This document shows positions 4,701 to 62,692 of a stretch of DNA of 64,000 nucleotides, one piece after another. The stretch covers positions 1,577,916 to 1,641,915 of the forward strand of contig OZ260090.1 in NCBI GenBank assembly GCA_965284535.1, in the 5' to 3' direction. The first letter of the stretch is position 1, and each line of letters begins with the position of its first letter. The notes beneath the pieces are model-generated. The model had not been told where the DNA came from. It did no database searches and saw only the letters and a list, made by a program, of their open reading frames with translations. This DNA comes from Caulobacteraceae bacterium. Its GTDB lineage: Bacteria > Pseudomonadota > Alphaproteobacteria > Caulobacterales > Caulobacteraceae. Position numbers and translations under genes: made by a program.

Positions 4701-5795
4701 TCAGGCCGCCGCGGCCCCGCGGCGCATGCGCCAGAAGCGCAGGGTCCTGAGGGCGGCGTCGCGGCTCAGCTCGGCATACATGCGGGCATAGGCGTGGGCC
4801 TTGGTCATGGCGTCGCCGTCGTCATTGAGCAGCACCACCGCATAGGTCAGGAACAGCGCCCGATCGAGATCTGCGGACTTGCAGACCACGGCCAGGGCAT
4901 CCAGTTCCCGGCGATCGACGATCTGGCGGGCGGTGTGGAAGTCGATGTCCGACAGCTGGGCCAGGGCGATCAGGAACGAGGTTGTCCCGCCAGACCGCAG
5001 GAACCGCGCGAGCATCTGGGGTGTCAGCTGGCCGGCGGCCTTCAGCTCTTCAACATAGGCCGAGCATTCGGCGTAGTCGGCGGGGAGGGCACCGTCGTCC
5101 GTCGCGATCCGCGCCCGACCGGCCGCAAGGGCGCTTTCCAGCAGGCTCGGATCCATCCGCGCGTTCTGTTCGAGGATGGTGGTGCGCAGCCGGGCCTCGA
5201 CCACGAAATACATCTCGTTCAGCAGGTCTGCCGGCAGGCTGGCGCGGGAAACCGTGGCCTCGTGCAGCGCCGGATTGACCCGGGCGCGTTCGACGGCGAC
5301 CTCGGATGACTTGCGCGACAGCCGCGCCCCGTCGTTGCGGAGCAGGGTGCCCAGGGTTTCGTCATCGCCGCGCTCGACAATGACCTCGGACACGGCCTCG
5401 GACACGGACGGGCGGGCCGAGACGGCGCGCAGATGGTCCTGACCGTGTTTGCGCACCACGCCCAGCAGGTCCTCGTCGGTCAGGACGGGAGAGGCGGTCA
5501 GGACAGCGCCGGCCACGGCGACCTCGTCATTGGCCAGTCGGCGGATCAGGGCATGGGGGGCGTCGGGCGCACTGGCGAACCGGGCCGACAGCTCGGCGCG
5601 GACGGCCGTTTCCATGTCCGCCGCCAGGCTGGCCAGGACGCTGCCGTAGAGCGTGTCCTCGGTCGCCGAGCGGGCCGTGGAGCCGAAGAAATGCTCGGTC
5701 AGTTCGCGCAGAAGGGCGCGGCGTTTTTCGCTCGACCCTTCTTCGGCCATGGCGATCAGCTCGGGCAGGCGGGACGGCGTCGACGCTTCAGTCAC
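4701..5795 (-). CDS. DUF2336 domain-containing protein (second paralog)
   Basis: RLANDEVAVAGAVLTASPVLTDEDLL, LRAVSARPSVSEAVSEVIVERGDDETLGTLLRNDGARLS. Confidence 0.85.
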   Translation of the reverse strand: MTEASTPSRLPELIAMAEEGSSEKRRALLRELTEHFFGSTARSATEDTLYGSVLASLAADMETAVRAELSARFASAPDAPHALIRRLANDEVAVAGAVLTASPVLTDEDLLGVVRKHGQDHLRAVSARPSVSEAVSEVIVERGDDETLGTLLRNDGARLSRKSSEVAVERARVNPALHEATVSRASLPADLLNEMYFVVEARLRTTILEQNARMDPSLLESALAAGRARIATDDGALPADYAECSAYVEELKAAGQLTPQMLARFLRSGGTTSFLIALAQLSDIDFHTARQIVDRRELDALAVVCKSADLDRALFLTYAVVLLNDDGDAMTKAHAYARMYAELSRDAALRTLRFWRMRRGAAAA

Positions 5796-6797: not shown

Positions 6798-7550
6798 TCA
6801 GGAGAGGCGGCGTCGAACGGCCCGCTCCAGCAGACCGATACCGGCATTGAGCAGCAGGCCCATGGCCATCAGACAGGCCAGCGCCGCCAGCATGTCGGCG
6901 GTGCGCAGCCGGTTGCCGGCCTCCAGCAGCCGCCAGGCCAGCCCCTGGGTCGCGCCTGATCCGGACACGAATTCGGCTACCACAGCCCCGATCACGGCCA
7001 GCCCTGCGGCCACCCGCAATCCCTCGAGCGCGAACGGCAGGGCAGCGGGCAGGCGCAGGCGGCGCAGTCGCTGGACCGGCGAGGCACCGTAGAGGTCAAA
7101 CAGCCGCTCCAGATCGGGATCGGCGGACTTCAGCCCGGTCAATATGCCCGAGAACACCGGGAAGAAGGCGACGGTCGCGGCCAGGGCGACGACGGCCCGG
7201 TCCGCGTGATCCAGTCCGGCCCAGATCGTCACCAGGGGCGCGATGGCGACCACCGGCGTGACCTGCAAGGCAACGGCGAGGGGCCGGACGGCCCGTTCGG
7301 CCGGCCGGCTGAGCGAGACGGCGAGTGCCAGTCCCCCGCCGATCAGGGTCGCGATCACCAACGCCTGCAGCGCCATCCAGAAGGTGGCGGCGGAGGCGGC
7401 CGCAAGGATGGGTGCGCGAGCCAGCAAGGCGGCGGCAACCGCGCTGGGCGGGGGCAGGAACCAGGGTGGGAGTTGCAGGGTGCGGCAGGCGATCTCCCAG
7501 CCCGCGAGCAGAAGGAGGGCGAGGAGCAGGGGCGGAAGGATGCGGCTCAT
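6798..7550 (-). CDS. ABC transporter permease (NitT/TauT family)
   Basis: Multiple TM segments, LQVTPVVAIAPL, DLERLFDLYGAS...LRLPAALP EAA-like loop; start at ATG 7550. Confidence 0.9.
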   Translation of the reverse strand: MSRILPPLLLALLLLAGWEIACRTLQLPPWFLPPPSAVAAALLARAPILAAASAATFWMALQALVIATLIGGGLALAVSLSRPAERAVRPLAVALQVTPVVAIAPLVTIWAGLDHADRAVVALAATVAFFPVFSGILTGLKSADPDLERLFDLYGASPVQRLRRLRLPAALPFALEGLRVAAGLAVIGAVVAEFVSGSGATQGLAWRLLEAGNRLRTADMLAALACLMAMGLLLNAGIGLLERAVRRRLS

Positions 7551-8323
7551 GCGCCTGCTCCCGCCGGGACGGACGGCATGGCGCCCGACAGTCTGGCAGC
7601 CAGCGCCTCCACCGCCGCCCGATAGCCGGCGTCGGCGCGCCATCCCTCCGGTCGCGGCAGGGAGCCCGGCGAAGCGAGCGCGGCCGCGACGCCACCCGTC
7701 GCTGCGTCCAGCACCAGGGTCCGGCCGGCGAGATAGACTGCTTCCTCGACGTCATGGGTGACGAAGACGATAGCGGGGCGCGGGCTCCGACCGGCCCACA
7801 GGCGGTGCAGATCCTCGATCAGGCGGCGGCGGGTGACGCTGTCGAGGGCGGCGAAGGGTTCGTCGAGCAGAAGCAGGTCCGGTTCGGTGACGAGGGCCCT
7901 CGCGAGGGCGGCCCGCATGGCCATGCCGCCGGACAGCTGACGCGGGCGAGCCGTCAGGCGGTCGCCCAGGCCGACGGCGGTCAGGGCCTCGGCGGCGCGG
8001 GCACGGGCTTCGGGACGGGCCACGCCGGCCAACTCCAGCGGCAGGGCGACATTGGTCAGGGCGTCGGCCCAGGGCATCAGGGTCGCGGATTGGAAGACGA
8101 AGCCGGTGCGCCCCTCCGCCCGTCCGACCGTGCCTTCGGCCGGCGACTCCAGCCCCGCGAGCAGGCGCAGGACGGTGGACTTTCCCGCGCCCGATGCGCC
8201 GACGACAGCGACGATCTCTCCCTGGGCGACGGTCAGGCTGACGGGACCGAGCGGCGGCCGGCCGGGATAGTGGACGAGCACGCCGTCCAGGGACGCCGCG
8301 GCGTCCGTCGCGGCCTCAGCCAC
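7547..8323 (-). CDS. ABC transporter ATP-binding protein
   Basis: Walker A GASGAGKST, LSGGM signature, LLLDEPFAALD. Confidence 0.95.
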   Translation of the reverse strand: MAEAATDAAASLDGVLVHYPGRPPLGPVSLTVAQGEIVAVVGASGAGKSTVLRLLAGLESPAEGTVGRAEGRTGFVFQSATLMPWADALTNVALPLELAGVARPEARARAAEALTAVGLGDRLTARPRQLSGGMAMRAALARALVTEPDLLLLDEPFAALDSVTRRRLIEDLHRLWAGRSPRPAIVFVTHDVEEAVYLAGRTLVLDAATGGVAAALASPGSLPRPEGWRADAGYRAAVEALAARLSGAMPSVPAGAGA

Positions 8324-9356
8324 GGCCGGGCAGATATTGGGTGGTGAAGGCCTGACGCCAGTCGAGGTTGGGCGGATAGACGCCGGCCCCGGACGTCACC
8401 TCGAAGAAGGCCTGCCAGCGTTCCGCGGTCATGGCACCGAGACCGTAGAGGGCGGCGTCGCCGCCGTTGACGACTCCATTGGCTCTCAACTTCGCCCGGG
8501 CCTGATCAAGCACGTCCTGGGTCATGTCGGGATTGTCCCTGCGGATCAGGGCATCGGCCGCCTTGCCGTCGCCCTGGATATAGTCGCGCCAGCCCTCGAC
8601 CGAGGCGGCAATGAAGCTGCGCAGGGCGGCGGCATTGTCGCGGGCAAAGGCATTGGGTGCCAGGACCATGGCGGCGTAGGAGGGATAGCCCTCGTCGGCC
8701 AGCAGGAAGACCTTGGGCGCGAAGCCGCCGACCTGTTCGATGGTGTAGGGCTCCGAGGTCAGATAGCCCTGCTGCACCGCCCGCTCGTCCGCGAGGAAGG
8801 GCGCGGGGTTGAAATTGTAGGTCCGCACCTGATCGTCGGTGAAGCCGTATCTGGCCTTGAGCCAGACCCAGAAGGCATCGCGCGAGGCCGTGGCCAGAAG
8901 GATGGGCCGACCGGCCAGGTCGGCGATGGTCTGAAGCGCCGGGTCGGGGTGGGCGATGAGGACCTGGGGGTCCTTCTGGAAGAAGGCGGCGACGGCCTTC
9001 ACCGGGGCCCCTTCGGCGACGAGGTTCATCGGGATGAAGCTGTTGGAGCCCATGCCCAGTTCGACGGCACCGGAGGCCAGCAACTGGGGAACGTTCACGC
9101 CCGGCCCGCCCTGCAGAATCTGGACGTTCAGCCCGCGCCGGGCATAGGCCCCCGAGGCCAGGGCCTGATAGAAGCCGCCGTGCTCGGCCTGGGCGCGCCA
9201 GTCGGTGGCGAAGCGGAGACGGACGCGGCCTTCCTCGTCGACGGGCGCTTCCGCGCGCTGGCAGCCCGCCAGCGCCGTGGCAGCCGCGAGCGCGCCGGCG
9301 CCTGCGAGGAGGGCGCGGCGGTCAGGCGATGAGGGACGATTCCCGCGCGAGGTCAT
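8316..9356 (-). CDS. ABC substrate-binding lipoprotein, NMT1/THI5-like
   Basis: Tat-like DRRALL and lipobox LAGC; TDWRAQAEHGGFYQA, QKDPQ; the ORF-track extension to 9644 runs through repeats and is not used. Confidence 0.88.
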   Translation of the reverse strand: MTSRGNRPSSPDRRALLAGAGALAAATALAGCQRAEAPVDEEGRVRLRFATDWRAQAEHGGFYQALASGAYARRGLNVQILQGGPGVNVPQLLASGAVELGMGSNSFIPMNLVAEGAPVKAVAAFFQKDPQVLIAHPDPALQTIADLAGRPILLATASRDAFWVWLKARYGFTDDQVRTYNFNPAPFLADERAVQQGYLTSEPYTIEQVGGFAPKVFLLADEGYPSYAAMVLAPNAFARDNAAALRSFIAASVEGWRDYIQGDGKAADALIRRDNPDMTQDVLDQARAKLRANGVVNGGDAALYGLGAMTAERWQAFFEVTSGAGVYPPNLDWRQAFTTQYLPGRG

Positions 9357-9411
9357 GGCCTTGGTGTACGGCTCAGGTGCGGGGAGGGGAAGGGGCAACC
9401 GGGCCTGCTTC

Positions 9412-9470
9412 GCCCCCTCCGTCACAGCGCGAAGCCGCGCCGCGCCACCTCCCCCGGGAGGGGGAGGGGA
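9412..9470. repeat. CIR/REP-like palindromic element (family A)
   Basis: gccccctccg...gccacctccccc-ggga-gggggagg; related copies at 18703, 24118, 27058 and 62751. Confidence 0.75.
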
Positions 9471-9484
9471 CGGATCGTCCTCAA

Positions 9485-9631
9485 GCCGCGAGCGACCGCG
9501 CCGCGCTCCCCCGATCAAGTCGGGGGATGACGATGAATCGCCCTCAGGCCGCGAGCGACCGCGTCGCGCTCCCCCGATCAAGTCGGGGGATGACGATGAA
9601 TCGCCCTCAGGCCGCGAGCGACCGCGTCGCG
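9485..9631. repeat. 63-bp tandem repeat, ~2.3 copies, with internal hairpin and GANTC site
   Basis: gccgcgagcgaccgcg starts at 9485, 9548 and 9611; each full unit has tcccccga-tcaag-tcggggga and gaatc. Confidence 0.92.
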
Positions 9632-9649
9632 AGCATAGGGCCAACCAGA

Positions 9650-10030
9650 ATTGAGCGAGGGGACGAAGATCCCCGGCGAACCGGTTTTCCTCGTCCCCTC
9701 GCCAAGTCCGGGTTGGACTTGGCCATTGAGGTTCAGAACCCTGGCTTCGGCATCAGCGAGGCGAACCCCGGTGATGGTCAGCTGTATCCTGTCGCGCTCC
9801 TGGTCTCCGGCGTTCCACGAGGTCGAGCCTCGCGCCGTCCATCGATCCCGATCCGGTTCCCTCCGGTCTTCTCCGGCCGAAGCCTTTGAAGGGTCCCTTG
9901 GGCCTTGATCCTGTCTCCCGTCCGTTAAGGTCGAAACCCCCCGGTGCGTTCGATCAGAGAGCCGGGCCGGTCCGCTTTGAGCCCCGGGTCTCCCCGGTTT
10001 TCCGCGCCGCCGTGTCCCTCGGCCTGATCA
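9650..10030 (-). ncRNA. Candidate large structured RNA or cis-regulatory leader (unassigned family)
   Basis: At least seven hairpins; four UUCG loops and one GAGA loop read on the minus strand, with G-U pairs valid only on that strand; no credible ORF. Confidence 0.6.
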
Positions 10031-10236
10031 AGCTCGCTCCGATCCGCGGATGTGGCAAGCGGTCCGGAATGACCGGCTGTGGATGTGCTTGGGGATAAAT
10101 CATGCAGGACGCGAAAGGGATTGTGATGATCTTCGAATTTTCTTCGATGGGTGAGGGGGTTGCGACTTCTGCACAGACTCGCGAAAAGGGCCCGGAATTC
10201 GTGGCGACCGGACCGTTCCTGAGCGTTTGAACGGGG

Positions 10237-11226
10237 TCAGACGGCGTCGAGGGCGGCCAGTCGGTGTTCGAGCCAGTCCCGGATTTCGGTCAGGCACCGG
10301 GTCGCAAGGGGGCCGCCGAAATGGATGAAGCCGTGTGGAGCCAGCGGCACCTCAAGCAGGTCTGCGTCGGCGGTCCAGGCCGCGGCCATCAGCCGACTGT
10401 CGTCACGCAGCGGATCGAGTTCGCCGGCGATGAACAGGGCGGGCGGCAGGTCGCGCAGGTCGGCGTAGAGGGGTGAGATGTCAGGGCTGCGGCGTCCGGT
10501 CTCGTCGCGGTCGGGGGTCAGGCGGCCCAGGTCCGAGGCGAGGGTCAGGCCATTGAGGATCAGGGTGTCGGGTCCGGCGGCGCGCGCTGAAGGGCTGCCC
10601 GACAGATCATAGACGCCATAGACCAGCACACAGCCGCGAAAGGCACCGAGACGGCCCTCGTCGCGCAGGGCCAGTCCGGTCAGGGTGGCGAGGTGGGCAC
10701 CCGCTGACTGGCCCGCGAGGAACAGCCGGTCCGTGCCGAAGCGGGCGACAGCGTTTTCGGCCAGCCAGCGGCCGGCGGCCATGCAATCGGACAGGGCATG
10801 TTCCATCAGCACGCCCCGCGGCTCGCTGAGCAGGCGGTAGTCGACAGAGACCACCGCCAGCCCCGCCCCGGCGGCCAGATCGGCGTTGAGGTGGTCGTTC
10901 AGGCCCGCGCTGCCGACGACCCAGCCGCCGCCATGGATGTCGAGAATGACGCCACGCGCCGGGCCGGGTGGATTGAGGATGCGGATGGAAACGTCGCCGT
11001 CTTCCGACGGGATGCGCAGGGTCTCGACCCGCACGCCGCGGCGGGACAGCTGGGCGGCGGTGACCCGTTCGGCGACGCGGCCGAACCGGCTGCTGAGCCA
11101 TTGCCCCGCCGTCAGTCGCCAGCCGTCGGCCTTGAGGCGCGGGATCAGGGCGAGTGCGGCGTTGGTCCGCTCGGCGGTGCGGCGCTCGGTGGGGGTCAGG
11201 TCCAGTCGGCGAACGCGAACGGTCAT
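10237..11226 (-). CDS. Alpha/beta hydrolase (HSL-like esterase)
   Basis: HGGGW oxyanion motif, GQSAG nucleophile, DPLRDD, HGF. Confidence 0.92.
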   Translation of the reverse strand: MTVRVRRLDLTPTERRTAERTNAALALIPRLKADGWRLTAGQWLSSRFGRVAERVTAAQLSRRGVRVETLRIPSEDGDVSIRILNPPGPARGVILDIHGGGWVVGSAGLNDHLNADLAAGAGLAVVSVDYRLLSEPRGVLMEHALSDCMAAGRWLAENAVARFGTDRLFLAGQSAGAHLATLTGLALRDEGRLGAFRGCVLVYGVYDLSGSPSARAAGPDTLILNGLTLASDLGRLTPDRDETGRRSPDISPLYADLRDLPPALFIAGELDPLRDDSRLMAAAWTADADLLEVPLAPHGFIHFGGPLATRCLTEIRDWLEHRLAALDAV

Positions 11227-11269: not shown

Positions 11270-13093
11270 TCAGGCGCTGCTCAGCGCTTCCCGCTTTGCC
11301 TCCAGCTCCAGCCATTCCTCCTCCGCCGCCGCCAGCAGGGCGCGGGCGCGGTCGGCGTTGGCGGAGGCCTTGTCGAAGGCCTTGCGGTCGCGGGTATAGA
11401 GGTCCGGGTCCGAGAGGGTCGCGTCGTGGCGGGCGATGTCGATGGGAAGGGTCTCGAGCAGGCCTTCCAGTTCCTTCAGGCGGTGGGCGTCCTTGAAGGT
11501 CAGCTTCTTCGGGGTCGAGGGCCGAGGGGCGAGGGGTGCCGCGGGAGCCCCGGTCGATGCCTTCTTCCACTCGTCCCGCGTCCCTCGTCCCTCGCCGCGG
11601 GTGAGGAATCCCGGGTTCTGGCGGATGAAATCGGTCCAGCCGCCGGGGGTTTCGACGATGTCGCCGCGGCCGTTCATGGCGATGGTCGAGGTGGCCAGAC
11701 GGTCGACGAAGTCGCGGTCGTGGCTGACCAGAATGAGGGTGCCGTCATAGGTCTCGAGCAGCTCTTCCAATTTGTCGAGGGTGTCCATGTCGAGGTCGTT
11801 GGTCGGCTCGTCGAGAACCAGCATGTTCGCGGGCTTGGCCAGGGCGCGGGCCAGCAGAAGGCGGTTGCGCTCTCCGCCGGACAGGGTCGAGATCGGCTGG
11901 CGCAGCTGGCCCTCCTGGAACAGGAAGTCCTTGGCGTAGGCGGCCACGTGTTTGGAGACGCCACGCACCAGCACGCTGTCGCCGCCGCCGGGGGTCAGGG
12001 CGTCCCACAGGGTCATGTCGCTGCGCAGGCCCTCACGCGACTGGTCGAGGTAGACCGGCTCGAGGTTGGCTCCCAGCTTGACCGATCCGGCATCCGGGGC
12101 GAGTTCGCCGAGCAGGATCTTGACCAGGGTGGTCTTGCCCGCGCCATTGGGGCCGACGATGGCCAGCCGATCGCCGCGGATGACGCGGGTGGTGAAGGGT
12201 TTGATGACGGCGCGGTCGCCGAAGGTCTTGGAGATCCCCTTGAGGTCCGCGACCAGCTTGCCGGAGGTCGCCCCGGAGTCGACGCCGAGGTTCAGTTCGC
12301 GCGGGACGTCCTTGAGGCGTTCAGCCCGGTCGGCGCGCAGGGCGTCCAGCGAGCGGGCGCGGCCTTCGTTGCGGGTGCGGCGGGCGGTGATGGAGCGGTA
12401 GAAGGTCTCGGTCTCGCGCTCGATGGTCTTGCTCAGCCGCTGAAGGGACTGGGCTTCCTCCTCCTGAACCTTGGTGGACCATTCGTCGAAGGCGGCGAAG
12501 CCCTTGTTCAGGGTGCGGACGCGGCGGCCTTCGAGCCAGTGGCAGGACTGGGTGACGCGGTTCAGGAAGGCACGGTCGTGGCTGACCACCAGCACGGCGA
12601 ACCGGGCCTGAAGCAGTTCGTCCTCGAGCAGTTCGATGGCCAGGATATCGAGGTGGTTGGTCGGCTCGTCGAGCAGGAGCAGGTCGGGCTCTTCGGCGAA
12701 GGCCTTGGCCAGGGCGGCGCGACGGATTTCACCGCCGGAAAGGTTGACGGCGGGCTTGGCCGCGTCGAGGCTGAAGGTGGTCAGCCAGGCCTCGGCGGTC
12801 CAGTGGTCGGCCCCGCCCGATTCCGCGTAGTCGAGCAGGGTCTCGCCGGTGATGACGGGCTCCTGTGGCACATAGGCGAAGCGGGTGCCGGCCTGGACGG
12901 ACCGGTCGCCGGCGTCGGGCTCGATGAGGCCCATGACCATCTTCATAAGGGTCGATTTTCCGGCCCCGTTGCGGCCGACGAGGGCGGCGCGGGTGCGCGG
13001 CTCGACAGCGATGTCGACCCCGTCGAACAGCGGACGCTGGCCGTCCTGCAGGCGGACATTCTTCAGGGCGACGAGGGGAGGACGGGGGGCCAT
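11270..13093 (-). CDS. uup: ABC-F family ATPase (Uup-like)
   Basis: Two ABC domains (GRNGAGKST, LSGGE, DEPTNHLD; GPNGAGKTT, LSGGERNR, DEPTNDLD) and a C-terminal coiled coil; start MAPRPP. Confidence 0.88.
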   Translation of the reverse strand: MAPRPPLVALKNVRLQDGQRPLFDGVDIAVEPRTRAALVGRNGAGKSTLMKMVMGLIEPDAGDRSVQAGTRFAYVPQEPVITGETLLDYAESGGADHWTAEAWLTTFSLDAAKPAVNLSGGEIRRAALAKAFAEEPDLLLLDEPTNHLDILAIELLEDELLQARFAVLVVSHDRAFLNRVTQSCHWLEGRRVRTLNKGFAAFDEWSTKVQEEEAQSLQRLSKTIERETETFYRSITARRTRNEGRARSLDALRADRAERLKDVPRELNLGVDSGATSGKLVADLKGISKTFGDRAVIKPFTTRVIRGDRLAIVGPNGAGKTTLVKILLGELAPDAGSVKLGANLEPVYLDQSREGLRSDMTLWDALTPGGGDSVLVRGVSKHVAAYAKDFLFQEGQLRQPISTLSGGERNRLLLARALAKPANMLVLDEPTNDLDMDTLDKLEELLETYDGTLILVSHDRDFVDRLATSTIAMNGRGDIVETPGGWTDFIRQNPGFLTRGEGRGTRDEWKKASTGAPAAPLAPRPSTPKKLTFKDAHRLKELEGLLETLPIDIARHDATLSDPDLYTRDRKAFDKASANADRARALLAAAEEEWLELEAKREALSSA

Positions 13094-13251
13094 GGAAACC
13101 TTGTGGACGCCGCGCGCGGGGCTTTGGTTATCGGGGAGGCCGCGCGGTCGAAGGCGGCCATATAGTCGGTGCGCGGCGCTGTGACCACCGGCTGTGCCTG
13201 ATACGGCCAAAGGGCGGCGACAGGCCGCGCCGATGCGGGTAAAGCCCGCCC

Positions 13252-17112: not shown

Positions 17113-17529
17113 ATGACGGGAAATCAGGACAAGGCGGCGCGGGCGGCGGCCCGGCTCGAGCAGATCTATGACCGGCTCGACCCCATGCTGGACAGAGCAA
17201 TGGTCGCGTTGGACGACAGTCCGCTCGAGTCCGGCGATACGCTCGCGGTGCAGCGATTTGTACGTGGCGTGGAACTGGTGGCGAGAGCCGCGCGAACCAT
17301 CGCGACACTGATCAATCCGCCGGGTCGAGGCCCGGGTGCCGCGCAAACAGAGGACGATATGGACAACGATGACCGCGACGACAGCCCCGAGGCGCTGGAC
17401 CGGCTTCGGGCCGAACTCGAGTCCCGTCTCGATGGCCTCCGGACCACGATCGAGGCAAAGCGCGTGGAAGGCTGGACTGTTGTCCGAGCAACTGCGCGAG
17501 GCGATCAAGAGCACGCCGAGGCTGCATAG
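17113..17529 (+). CDS. Putative GTA small terminase (g1 position)
   Basis: First gene of the cluster, helical, DDSPEALDRLRAELESRLDGL; overlaps the large terminase. Confidence 0.65.
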   Translation: MTGNQDKAARAAARLEQIYDRLDPMLDRAMVALDDSPLESGDTLAVQRFVRGVELVARAARTIATLINPPGRGPGAAQTEDDMDNDDRDDSPEALDRLRAELESRLDGLRTTIEAKRVEGWTVVRATARGDQEHAEAA

Positions 17530-18691
17530 CCATCAGGTAATTCCTGAAGTCGACTGGCGAACCTGGCTTGTGCTCGGGGGGCGCGGATCAGGAAAGACCC
17601 ATGCGGGGGCCAACTGGGTCACAGAACTGGCGCGGGCCAGGGGCCTGAGGATAGCCCTGGTCGGGCCGACCCTGCACGATGTGCGCGAGGTCATGGTCGA
17701 GGGGCCTTCGGGCCTGAAGAATTTTGGCGAGACGGGCAACCGCCCACGCTGGGATGGTGGCCGCAAACGGCTGGTCTGGCCCAGCGGAACCGAGGCCCAC
17801 GCCTTTTCCGCGGAGGATCCCGACAGTTTGCGCGGCCCCCAATTTCACCATGCATGGGCCGACGAGTTCTGTGCCTGGAGACGGCCCGAGGCCGTGCTGG
17901 AAAATCTGCGACTGGGACTGCGGCTGGGCGAGGACCCACGCCTCATGGTGACGACGACCCCTCGCCCCCTTCCAGCGCTGAGACGGCTGCTGACCCAGGA
18001 CGGCACCTGTATCGACCGGGCCGGGACGCAGGCCAATGCGGCCAATCTGTCGCCCGGATTTCTGGGCCATCTGCGGACGCTTTACGCCGGGACGCGGCTG
18101 GAGGCGCAGGAGCTGGAGGGGCTGGTGGTCGAGGCCGAGGGGGCCCTGTTCCGGGCCGAGGATCTGGCGCGGGCGCGCGGCAACCGGCCGGCAACGCTGG
18201 AGAGGATCGTGGTGGCGGTGGATCCGCCGGCGAGCGCGGGCGGGGATGCCTGTGGGATCGTGGTCGTCGGGCGCAGGGACGACCGGGCCTATGTACTGGC
18301 GGACCAGTCAGCAGGCGGGCTGTCGCCCCAGGGCTGGGCGACGCGAGTGGCTGAGGTCGCGCGCGAGTTCGGGGCGCTGGAGATCGTGGCCGAGAAGAAC
18401 CAGGGCGGGGAGATGGTGCGGACGGTGCTGGCGCATGGCGGCTGCGAGGTTCCGATCAGACTGGTGCACGCCAGCCGGGGCAAGGCGGCCCGGGCCGAGC
18501 CGGTGGCGGCGCTGTATGAACAGGGACGGGTCGTTCACTGTGGGGCGTTTCCGGCGCTGGAGGAGGAACTGATGGCGCTGGGAGCGGTCGATGTCGGCGG
18601 GCGCAGTCCCGACCGGGCGGATGCCCTGGTCTGGGCGGTGACGCATCTGCTGCCGGCGCCCAGGGCGGGGCCGAGCCTAAGGGTGTTGTGA
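17480..18691 (+). CDS. GTA large terminase (start uncertain; TTG 17480 proposed)
   Basis: WLVLGGRGSGKT Walker A, LRGPQFHHAWADEFCAW, VVAVDPP, SPDRADALVWA. Confidence 0.92.
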   Translation: MSEQLREAIKSTPRLHSHQVIPEVDWRTWLVLGGRGSGKTHAGANWVTELARARGLRIALVGPTLHDVREVMVEGPSGLKNFGETGNRPRWDGGRKRLVWPSGTEAHAFSAEDPDSLRGPQFHHAWADEFCAWRRPEAVLENLRLGLRLGEDPRLMVTTTPRPLPALRRLLTQDGTCIDRAGTQANAANLSPGFLGHLRTLYAGTRLEAQELEGLVVEAEGALFRAEDLARARGNRPATLERIVVAVDPPASAGGDACGIVVVGRRDDRAYVLADQSAGGLSPQGWATRVAEVAREFGALEIVAEKNQGGEMVRTVLAHGGCEVPIRLVHASRGKAARAEPVAALYEQGRVVHCGAFPALEEELMALGAVDVGGRSPDRADALVWAVTHLLPAPRAGPSLRVL

Positions 18692-18702
18692 AGCCGGGCG
18701 TA

Positions 18703-18848
18703 TCCCTCCCCCGAAGTGGGGAGGGACGGCGGAGCGAAGCGGAGCCCGGGTGGGGAACGACAGTCCCGCACTGACGGCTGCCGGCTTCGGAATTCCCCAC
18801 CCTGTCGTCGCTTCGCGCCGACATCCCTCCCCATGAAGGGGAGGGAGA
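18703..18848. repeat. Composite CIR-like element: two inverted family-A arms between terminase and portal
   Basis: tccctcccc-gaagt-ggggaggga...ggggtgggg / ccccaccc...tccctcccc-atgaa-ggggaggga. Confidence 0.8.
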
Positions 18849-20024
18849 ATGATGGAGATTGGCATGATCAACTGGCGACGGCCCTTTGCGGGCCGGCGGC
18901 GCATTTCTGCGCCTGAAACCAAGGACAGCCGGGCGGGCCCGCTGATCGCCCTGACCAGTGGCGGGCGGGCGCGGTGGACACCGAGGGACTATGCGCATCT
19001 GGCCGAGGAGGGGTTCGCGAAGAACGCCGTGGCCTATCGCTGTGTGCGGATGATCGCCGAGGCGGCGGCGTCGACGCCGCTGGTGGTTTTCGCCAAGGGG
19101 GTTCGACGGGACGATCATCCGCTGGCGGCGCTGCTGGGGCGGCCGAACCCGGAGCAGTCCGGGGCGGAGTGGCTGGAGGCGCTGTACGGCGCGCTGCAGA
19201 CGGCGGGGAACGCCTATGCGGAAGCGGTCGGGGAGGGCGCGCCCGAGGAACTTTGGACGCTGCGGCCGGACCGGGTGAAGGTGGTTCCCGGCCGCGACGG
19301 ATGGCCCGAGGCCTGGGAGTATTCCGTCGACGGACGATCGGTCCGGATCGGGCGGGCGACGGACGGATGGTCTCCGGTGATGCAGCTGAAACTGTTTCAT
19401 CCGACCGACGATCACTACGGCTTTTCGCCGCTGGAGGCGGCGGCGTTCGCGATTGATGTTCACAACGCCTCGGGAGCCTGGAACAAGGCGCTGCTGGACA
19501 ATGCGGCGCGGCCGTCGGGGGCGCTGGTCTATGGGGCCAAGGATGGCGAACGGCTGACGGCCGAACAGTTCGAAGGCCTGCGGGCGCAGGTCGAGGACAG
19601 TCACGCCGGGACGATGAACGCCGGGCGGCCGATGATCCTGGAAGGCGGGCTGGACTGGAAGCCGATGAGCTGGACGCCCGCCGACATGGACTTCATCGCG
19701 GGCAAGCATGCGGCGGCGCGGGAGATCGCCTTGGCCTTCGGGGTGCCGCCGCAGCTGCTGGGGATTCCGGGGGACGCCACCTACGCCAACTATCGCGAGG
19801 CCAATGCCGCCTTCTGGCGCGGGACGGTGGTGCCACTGGTGCGCAAGACCGCGGCGGCGCTGACGGGGTGGCTGGGCGGGCGGTTCGCCGGGGTCAGGAT
19901 CGAGGCGGACCTGGACGGGTTGCCCGCGTTGCAGCCCGAGCGCGATGCGCTTTGGGCGCGGCTGAACGCGGCGACCTTCCTGACCGATGATGAGCGACGG
20001 CGGATGGCGGGGGTGGGGGCGTGA
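18849..20024 (+). CDS. GTA portal protein (HK97 family)
   Basis: NAVAYRCVRMIAEAAAS, LRPDRVKVV, FHPTDDHYGFSP, NAARPSGAL, FGVPPQLLGIPGDATYANY. Confidence 0.95.
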   Translation: MMEIGMINWRRPFAGRRRISAPETKDSRAGPLIALTSGGRARWTPRDYAHLAEEGFAKNAVAYRCVRMIAEAAASTPLVVFAKGVRRDDHPLAALLGRPNPEQSGAEWLEALYGALQTAGNAYAEAVGEGAPEELWTLRPDRVKVVPGRDGWPEAWEYSVDGRSVRIGRATDGWSPVMQLKLFHPTDDHYGFSPLEAAAFAIDVHNASGAWNKALLDNAARPSGALVYGAKDGERLTAEQFEGLRAQVEDSHAGTMNAGRPMILEGGLDWKPMSWTPADMDFIAGKHAAAREIALAFGVPPQLLGIPGDATYANYREANAAFWRGTVVPLVRKTAAALTGWLGGRFAGVRIEADLDGLPALQPERDALWARLNAATFLTDDERRRMAGVGA

Positions 20025-62523: not shown

Positions 62524-62692
62524 GGCGGCGGGTCCTGCTGCGGCTCTCGTCGAAGGCAACATTTCCTTGCGACCTTAATTCACTCAAAGGGATCTGTCCC
62601 TGTTTGGGCTCGAGGGCCCGGGCACACGGAGCCCACCTGGCTACCCAGGTCGAGAGGATTTAAACGCCCTTCACGGTTCTTGCGGCGCCGCC
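62524..62692 (+). ncRNA. ssrS: 6S RNA (ends approximate)
   Basis: Between zapA and ygfA as in many proteobacteria; ggcggcg/cgccgcc termini; internal aaagggatctgtccctg...cccgggcacacggagcccacc resembles alphaproteobacterial 6S. Confidence 0.65.

Follow-up and report, generated by a model that had tools for sequence, protein, structure and literature searches.

The raiA motif RNA of Firmicutes and Actinobacteria is an orphan, highly structured and very abundant RNA of unknown function, whose cellular abundance in Clostridioides difficile is reported as comparable to that of rRNA and tRNA (PMC12968392). The large ornate RNAs OLE, ROOL and GOLLD are intricately folded, have unknown or only recently glimpsed functions and form RNA-only homo-oligomers (PMC12286853), and 6S RNA and Ms1 RNA are RNA-polymerase-sequestering RNAs. 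Large bacterial RNAs (over 300 nt) with many conserved helices are rare and have historically turned out to be ribozymes, ribonucleoprotein cores or, more recently, RNA-only cages. We analysed a region of a Caulobacteraceae bacterium (contig OZ260090.1, assembly GCA_965284535.1) lying within a window of 64,000 nucleotides, the whole stretch of DNA examined. An initial annotation had proposed that its minus strand carries a novel large structured RNA without a credible ORF, which does not resemble RNase P, tmRNA, SRP, 6S or TPP and is either a stand-alone sRNA or a riboswitch/attenuator for the downstream ABC importer.

Conserved block, homologs and covariation

All hairpins proposed in the initial annotation are present in the sequence (Table 1). 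Hairpins of at least 3 bp closing a UUCG loop number 16 on the whole 64-kb minus strand (0.25 per kb), and four of them lie in this 380-nt stretch, where about 0.1 is expected, whereas none lies there on the plus strand. The folding energy of the single sequence is not informative, with z = -2.0 for the minus strand and -2.4 for the plus strand. Rfam 15 was searched at gathering thresholds, and the only match in the window is a 6S RNA. Permissive scans (E up to 10) of positions 9300-10400 and of the divergent B. vesicularis homolog gave only hairpin-level noise, with E of 0.01 or higher and mostly on the wrong strand, and ARAGORN found no tRNA or tmRNA. No plasmid or phage record matched, only one truncated hit was obtained in viral contigs, and the element occurs in one copy in the window. 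Full-text literature searches for the core sequence and related keywords found no description of it.

Table 1. Coordinates of the RNA gene, its predicted helices and the surrounding features in the window. RNA position p corresponds to window coordinate 10027 minus p.
Feature	Window coordinates	Strand	RNA positions	Description
Conserved block (RNA gene)	9649-10026	minus		Mature RNA about 365 nt; 5' end between 10016 (observed cDNA ends) and about 10024; 3' end at about 9650-9656, after the terminal hairpin
P1 and P2	9960-10024	minus	P1, 3-17 with 57-67; P2, 21-54	P1 closes the 5' domain; P2 is a hairpin (10006-9973) with GAGA loop (9992-9989), including ccggg-GAGA-cccgg (9997-9984)
P3	9911-9957	minus	70-116	Variable peripheral hairpin including ggggu-UUCG-accuu (loop 9935-9932)
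P4 domain	9850-9910	minus	117-177	Inner ggc-UUCG-gcc hairpin (loop 9881-9878)
P5	9802-9849	minus	178-225	Long irregular hairpin with cgagg/ccucg tip (9832-9818)
Conserved stretch	9783-9801	minus	226-244	AGGAGCGCGACAGGAUACA, no assigned pairing, just 5' of P6a
18-mer used for scans	9776-9793			Overlaps the conserved stretch
P6a and P6	9744-9782	minus	245-283 (P6a, 245-247 with 281-283)	P6 is the hairpin cauca..gggg-UUCG-ccuc..ugaug (9776-9751, loop 9765-9762)
P7	9701-9723	minus	304-326	9-bp hairpin gccaagucc/ggacuuggc with AACCC loop
P8 and tail	9649-9700	minus	P8, 327-370	Terminal hairpin (12 bp, internal loop, 4 bp, UUCG; 9700-9657) plus the tail GCUCAAUU; long terminal stem capped by ccgg-UUCG-ccgg placed at 9702-9655 in the initial annotation
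Inferred -10 region	10037-10026	minus		GCGAGC/GCTTGATC
-35-like hexamer	10053-10058	minus		TTGCCA, conserved as CGCTTGCC
DnaA-box-like motifs	10078-10098	minus		TTATCCCCA (10098-10090) and ACATCCACA (10086-10078), about 60-80 nt upstream of the RNA start
Further conserved upstream blocks	10131-10176	minus		CTGTGCAGAAGTCGCAA (10176-10160) and CGAAGAAAATTCGAAG (10146-10131), probably regulatory sites
Tandem repeat	9474-9631			63 nt, 2.5 copies, between the RNA and the SBP gene
ABC-F ATPase	11270-13120	minus		Upstream
Abhydrolase_3 esterase	10237-11226	minus		Upstream
NMT1/THI5-like substrate-binding protein (SBP)	8316-9356	minus		Downstream
ABC ATPase	7547-8323	minus		Downstream
Permease	6798-7550	minus		Downstream
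Protein without domains		minus		Downstream
DUF2336	4701-5795	minus		Downstream
6S RNA	62532-62692	plus		Rfam match (RF00013)

Homologs were searched with an 18-mer from the region, which hit 25 genomes out of 185,579 species, all Brevundimonas or Caulobacteraceae MAGs, in addition to 8 chance matches in unrelated taxa. The same 18-mer hit 34 metagenome contigs, 29 of which were confirmed as homologs by BLAST. Four named species missed by the 18-mer (B. lenta, B. basaltis, B. kwangchunensis and strain BR2-1) were reached through their SBP proteins, and all carry the RNA at the same place with changes inside the 18-mer, including AGCGGAU in B. kwangchunensis and CAGCCG in the adjoining P6a strand of three others. 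The apparent invariance of this core, although it is nearly invariant, was thus due to the way it was searched. In total, 51 homologs with 75-99% identity to the window were found, 47 of them full-length and distinct, all in Brevundimonas or Brevundimonas-like Caulobacteraceae, although beyond Brevundimonas the distribution was assessed only at the syntenic site of three sister-genus loci and by exact 18-mer scans.

The conserved block ends sharply on both sides, and the RNA evolves much more slowly than its neighbours. In one relative it has 2 differences in 378 nt, whereas the adjacent contig, mostly the esterase gene, is about 4% diverged, and in a metagenome contig the RNA is about 98% identical while the next 77 nt upstream are about 74% identical. 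Homologs differ by 1- and 2-nt indels at several places, and the only internal AUG that opens a 30-codon frame (9842) is ACG or AAG in many species, in agreement with the absence of a credible ORF.

The helices were defined by combining RNAalifold output with inspection. In the 47-sequence alignment, 98.7% of 4820 cells form standard pairs, and 22 of 103 pairs show changes on both sides, against 7.5±1.7 in 500 shuffles, none of which reached the observed value, and 6-10 when the partners were slid by 1-3 columns. The covariation score is 0.089 against 0.052. Read as the opposite strand, only 92.9% of cells pair, owing to conserved G-U pairs and A-U to G-U changes. P1 and P2 pair in 99-100% of cells, with double changes at 15:60 (C-G to U-A) and 32:41 (G-C to A-U), and the GAGA loop is invariant in 47 of 47 sequences. 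Double changes occur at seven of the 14 pairs of P3 and at six pairs of P4. The P3 stem is wholly replaced, with UUCG kept, in four lineages (L001, L004, L010 and L012 in the alignment), and its distal part is deleted in another (L058). P5 shows G-U to G-C and G-C to A-U changes with 97-100% pairing, and its tip is replaced by other sequence in L012 with pairing kept. Changes at 255:272 (A-U to G-C) and 247:281 (U-A to C-G) were found in P6 and P6a, and L012 has a different 7-bp P6 stem with the same UUCG loop. P7 is essentially invariant, the only change being A-U to G-U in five sequences, which is tolerated only on this strand. The lower stem of P8 is invariant, whereas its tip alternates between CCGG-UUCG-CCGG, CCG-CUUG-CGG and CGGG-UCCG-CCCG. 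The lack or near lack of variation in P1, P2, P7 and the lower stem of P8 says nothing for or against their pairing, but shows unusually tight constraint. All-against-all column covariation, performed to find pseudoknots, was dominated by lineage effects, and only P6a gained support. A potential antiterminator pairing between the P6 3' strand (CCUCGC) and the P8 5' strand (GCGAGG) was regarded as a coincidence, as the P6 strand varies without compensation by inspection of the alignment.

About 150 nt upstream of the RNA are partly conserved. The -35-like hexamer noted in the initial annotation is conserved in all homologs examined, with TTGC invariant in all 27 upstream regions aligned, and is followed by a GCGAGC/GCTTGATC or GCGAAC/GTCAAC region before the start. 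However, a scan with an E. coli-type consensus found no complete promoter, and the -10 element could not be assigned with confidence. The two DnaA-box-like motifs, also noted initially, are conserved in position as TTATCC(C/A)C and TCCACA in nearly all homologs, and two homologs carry the perfect TTATCCACA. The two further upstream blocks are conserved in most homologs although the surrounding intergenic sequence diverges. At the 3' end, the terminal hairpin is not followed by a U-tract, and no intrinsic terminator was found in 9200-10400.

Expression in environmental RNA surveys

At least fourteen metatranscriptomes, from soil, sediment, wastewater and water, contain the RNA, with 61-77% of the region's 31-mers. 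In all eight metatranscriptomes in which coverage was examined, it is confined to about 9663-10016, with nothing on the flanks. Contigs joined to sequencing adapters always carry the read-1 adapter on the low-coordinate side and the read-2 adapter on the high side, whereas the plus-strand 6S RNA shows the opposite arrangement in the same run. The libraries are therefore stranded and the RNA is on the minus strand. The high-coordinate junction is at 10014-10016 in five runs (X17, X26, X27, X30 and X37) and at 10010 in a sixth (X36). As the 6S control ends within 3 nt of its Rfam boundaries, the 5' end is at about 10016-10019, or further upstream, within the limit given in Table 1, if a few nucleotides are lost. 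The 3' end was not captured directly, as coverage falls steeply over the very stable P7 and P8 hairpins, and was inferred from the end of conservation.

Summed contig depth peaks at 3.8 million in X17 and 1.0 million in X30, whereas the 6S RNA of the same genus reaches 100-1000 in X17 and 10.7 in X30 and was not detected in X26 or X36. Over 20 kb, the bin containing the RNA averages 2.6x10^5 to 1.5x10^6 in three runs, while every other bin is at most about 100. The depth of the RNA is 10^3-10^5 times that of 6S RNA and of every other bin. All expression evidence comes from assembled contigs of metatranscriptomes, whose depth is a crude measure of abundance, and the conservation of the RNA lets it gather reads from the whole genus, whereas 6S RNA and mRNAs gather only those of close relatives, which inflates the ratio, perhaps 10-100 fold. 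The ratio to mRNA (about 10^6) is more than a cell could plausibly hold, and the true excess is therefore smaller, or part of the signal comes from selective survival of the RNA. The runs of unstated type (X2, X9 and X38) are DNA with flat depth. With these reservations, the RNA appears to be among the most abundant non-ribosomal transcripts of a widespread environmental and opportunistic genus, and is a strong confounder and a possible marker in metatranscriptomes, where it can take up a large share of the reads.

Genomic context and possible modes of action

The RNA lies upstream of the SBP gene, on the same strand, in every homolog in which the downstream gene is on the contig. However, the distance to the SBP start codon varies from 61 to 1599 nt, and in 11 of the loci examined the gap contains a DUF1963 gene on the same strand, a conserved ORF of 163-170 aa on the opposite strand (in at least five genomes) or, in B. 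vesicularis, an Abi-like ORF on the opposite strand, without loss of RNA conservation. B. basaltis keeps the RNA and the SBP gene but has no ATPase or permease genes there. A direct search for SBP homologs returned only Brevundimonas among the top 120, and sister genera were therefore reached through a 50%-cluster representative. In three sister Caulobacteraceae loci, whose SBP is about 62% identical, the neighbourhood CxxCxxCC-PBP-ABCF-SBP-ATPase-permease-x-DUF2336 is kept, but ABCF and SBP are only 62-87 nt apart, with a normal Shine-Dalgarno sequence, and nhmmer found no RNA in the 11-kb loci. The RNA, and in many genomes the esterase gene, is thus an insertion of the Brevundimonas lineage into a conserved operon junction, which provides a natural comparison of genomes with and without it.

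Of the two alternatives put forward initially, the stand-alone RNA ending at the terminal stem is therefore favoured, and it is likely that the RNA acts in trans as a stable molecule rather than as a leader of the importer. Nearly every nucleotide is constrained, including whole helices and an unpaired stretch, the GAGA loop is an invariant GNRA loop suited to a tertiary contact, and only the peripheral hairpins (P3 and the tips of P5, P6 and P8) are free to covary. From this we infer a compact tertiary fold, perhaps bound by one or more proteins, and tentatively suggest a scaffold or sequestering role in the manner of 6S, Ms1 or raiA-type RNAs, although no protein partner was identified and no sequence feature points to one. 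It is also possible, although unlikely, that the RNA is the core of a new kind of housekeeping-level ribonucleoprotein or RNA-only assembly that arose recently in the Brevundimonas lineage, for example a homo-oligomeric or unusually nuclease-resistant particle, possibly extracellular.

An alternative, considered unlikely, is that the RNA is real but that its extreme abundance is an artefact, due to reagent or water-borne Brevundimonas, to selective survival of a very stable RNA through rRNA depletion and library preparation, or to extracellular persistence. The implausible ratio to mRNAs, the fact that most runs share one library type and the likely occurrence of Brevundimonas as a common reagent and water contaminant are in favour of this view. 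However, several sequence variants coexist at intermediate frequencies in X17 and X27 and the mix differs in X30 and X37, which fits natural populations better than a single contaminant strain. Moreover, 6S RNA and some mRNAs of the genus are also present, and runs with other library types (X25 and X36) contain the RNA too.

Less likely still is a cis-acting leader, a riboswitch or attenuator of the importer of which the abundant species would be the terminated product. Besides the constant order and orientation, the SBP start codon is only 61-96 nt downstream in 14 loci, without an evident separate promoter, and binding proteins of the NMT1/THI5 type may often be riboswitch-controlled. In addition to the variable gaps, the inserted genes, the B. 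basaltis locus and the sister-genus operons, this view is disfavoured by the lack of a U-tract, of a conserved alternative pairing and of any TPP or other riboswitch match, by conservation along the whole length rather than in a core, and by a downstream depth of about 0-3 against up to 10^6 on the RNA. No read-through was seen, but in about a third of genomes the start codon is only 61-76 nt downstream with no obvious promoter of its own, and some read-through regulation there cannot be excluded.

A divergent housekeeping RNA (two-piece alphaproteobacterial tmRNA, RNase P RNA, SRP RNA or a second 6S RNA) is very unlikely, although the size (about 370 nt) and abundance may resemble those of a permuted ssrA gene or rnpB. 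In addition to the negative Rfam and ARAGORN searches and the normal 6S gene elsewhere in the window, the six-frame translation shows no ANDN-type tag frame, and by inspection alone there is no T-arm plus CCA, no alanine G3:U70 acceptor pair (the only long hairpin next to a CCA-like string has A3:U70) and no RNase P P4 motif. Finally, a protein-coding or DNA-level function, or a repeat or mobile element, is highly improbable despite long plus-strand ORFs overlapping the region (9329-9889 and others) and the abutting tandem repeat, given the indels, the non-conserved AUG, the strand-specific tolerance of G-U pairs, the single copy in the window, the lack of plasmid and phage matches and the position of the repeat outside the conserved block.

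Comparison with known systems

CsrB/RsmZ-type sponge RNAs have a similar length and multiple hairpins, and the new RNA contains 22 GGA triplets, including two ACAGGAU motifs. However, GGA is not enriched over dinucleotide shuffles (22 against 18.3±2.6, p=0.1), most GGA triplets lie in stems, and one ACAGGAU is changed in B. kwangchunensis, so that a CsrB-like sponge is not supported. UpsM of Rhodobacter, derived from a 5' UTR, is probably also a very abundant alphaproteobacterial RNA directly upstream of, and on the same strand as, an operon and ending at a hairpin, but it shares no sequence similarity with the new RNA, which in several genomes is separated from the downstream operon by unrelated or antisense genes.

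6S RNA and Ms1 RNA are stand-alone, stable and abundant RNAs with their own promoters, conserved mainly within lineages, and protein sequestration is a plausible functional analogy, but 6S is a single long hairpin with a central bubble, whereas the structure supported here by covariation is multi-branched. OLE, ROOL and GOLLD share no homology with the new RNA, which is smaller (365 nt against 580-800) and is not associated with phages or tRNA clusters, and the self-complementary CAGCUG noticed in it is not conserved, so that a conserved dimerisation palindrome is not supported. Like raiA motif RNA, it is an orphan, highly structured and very abundant RNA of unknown function, but there is no sequence or model similarity between them, and it differs in its length (about 365 nt rather than about 200 nt), its helix layout, its phylum and its confinement, as far as found here, to one genus.

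Control RNA, upstream elements and more distant expressed relatives

To provide a control for strand and abundance, a 6S RNA gene lying in the same window (RF00013, 52.6 bits) was used. This gene is transcribed in soil and wastewater metatranscriptomes, and the ends of its transcript lie within 3 nt of the Rfam boundaries. Upstream of the structured RNA, conserved DnaA-box-like motifs and two further conserved blocks were found, which suggest regulated transcription, possibly linked to the cell cycle or to nutrients. More distant expressed relatives exist among the metatranscriptome contigs (record 14 of run X36 and record 2 of run X25). One of them shares only the 5' domain and P5 (about 83% identity), with unrelated sequence in place of P3, P4 and the core, and the family may therefore be broader than the exact-word scans show.

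Features of the window and of homologous sequences
Feature	Coordinates	Strand
6S RNA gene	window 62532-62692	+
DnaA-box-like motifs and two further conserved blocks	window 10078-10098 and 10131-10176	-
Distant expressed relatives (X36 record 14, X25 record 2)	placed on window 9690-10011
63-nt tandem repeat	window 9474-9631
Recurring element (roughly 41 nt)	window 9411-9456 (element 9414-9454)
C/U-rich stretch and small hairpin before the SBP gene	window 9357-9400, and the last ~45 nt before the SBP start codon in the homologous loci
SBP, hypothetical and DUF2336 genes of B. basaltis	locus L073, 4001-7164
Large terminase and portal protein genes	window 17336-20024 and onward	+

The SBP gene and the terminase and portal gene cluster

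The Brevundimonas SBP gene is preceded by a conserved C/U-rich stretch (CCCUUCCCCUU) and by a small covarying hairpin (GGCCG-UAAACCA-CGGCC) that ends at the AUG, with no Shine-Dalgarno sequence, whereas the sister-genus orthologs have a plain GGAGG before the start. In B. basaltis the SBP gene is followed directly by the hypothetical and DUF2336 genes, and the ABC ATPase and permease genes are missing, yet the RNA upstream is intact. About 7 kb from the RNA, genes for a large terminase (Terminase_6N/6C) and a portal protein are followed by what looks, by eye, like a prohead protease gene; this is a gene-transfer-agent-like or prophage head-module cluster.

Repeats and insertions 3' of the RNA

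The tandem repeat (2.5 copies, 96% matches) lies directly 3' of the RNA. Relatives carry related repeats at the same place in different numbers, one of them (sequencing run X38) having a copy fewer, and no other copy was found elsewhere in the window. The roughly 41-nt element recurs in other contigs of the same genomes and metagenomes with unrelated flanks, and looks like a short dispersed (REP-like) repeat. The DNA immediately after the 3' end of the RNA is a hot spot for small insertions (0.06-1.6 kb) of unrelated genes and repeats. Among the homologous loci, these include an antisense ORF in L054, L028, L033, L044 and L010, a DUF1963 gene in L056, L022 and L048, and an Abi-like ORF in L012; the gap of L001 is a further case. 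Although no integrase was seen, this arrangement is reminiscent of island insertion next to tRNA and tmRNA genes.
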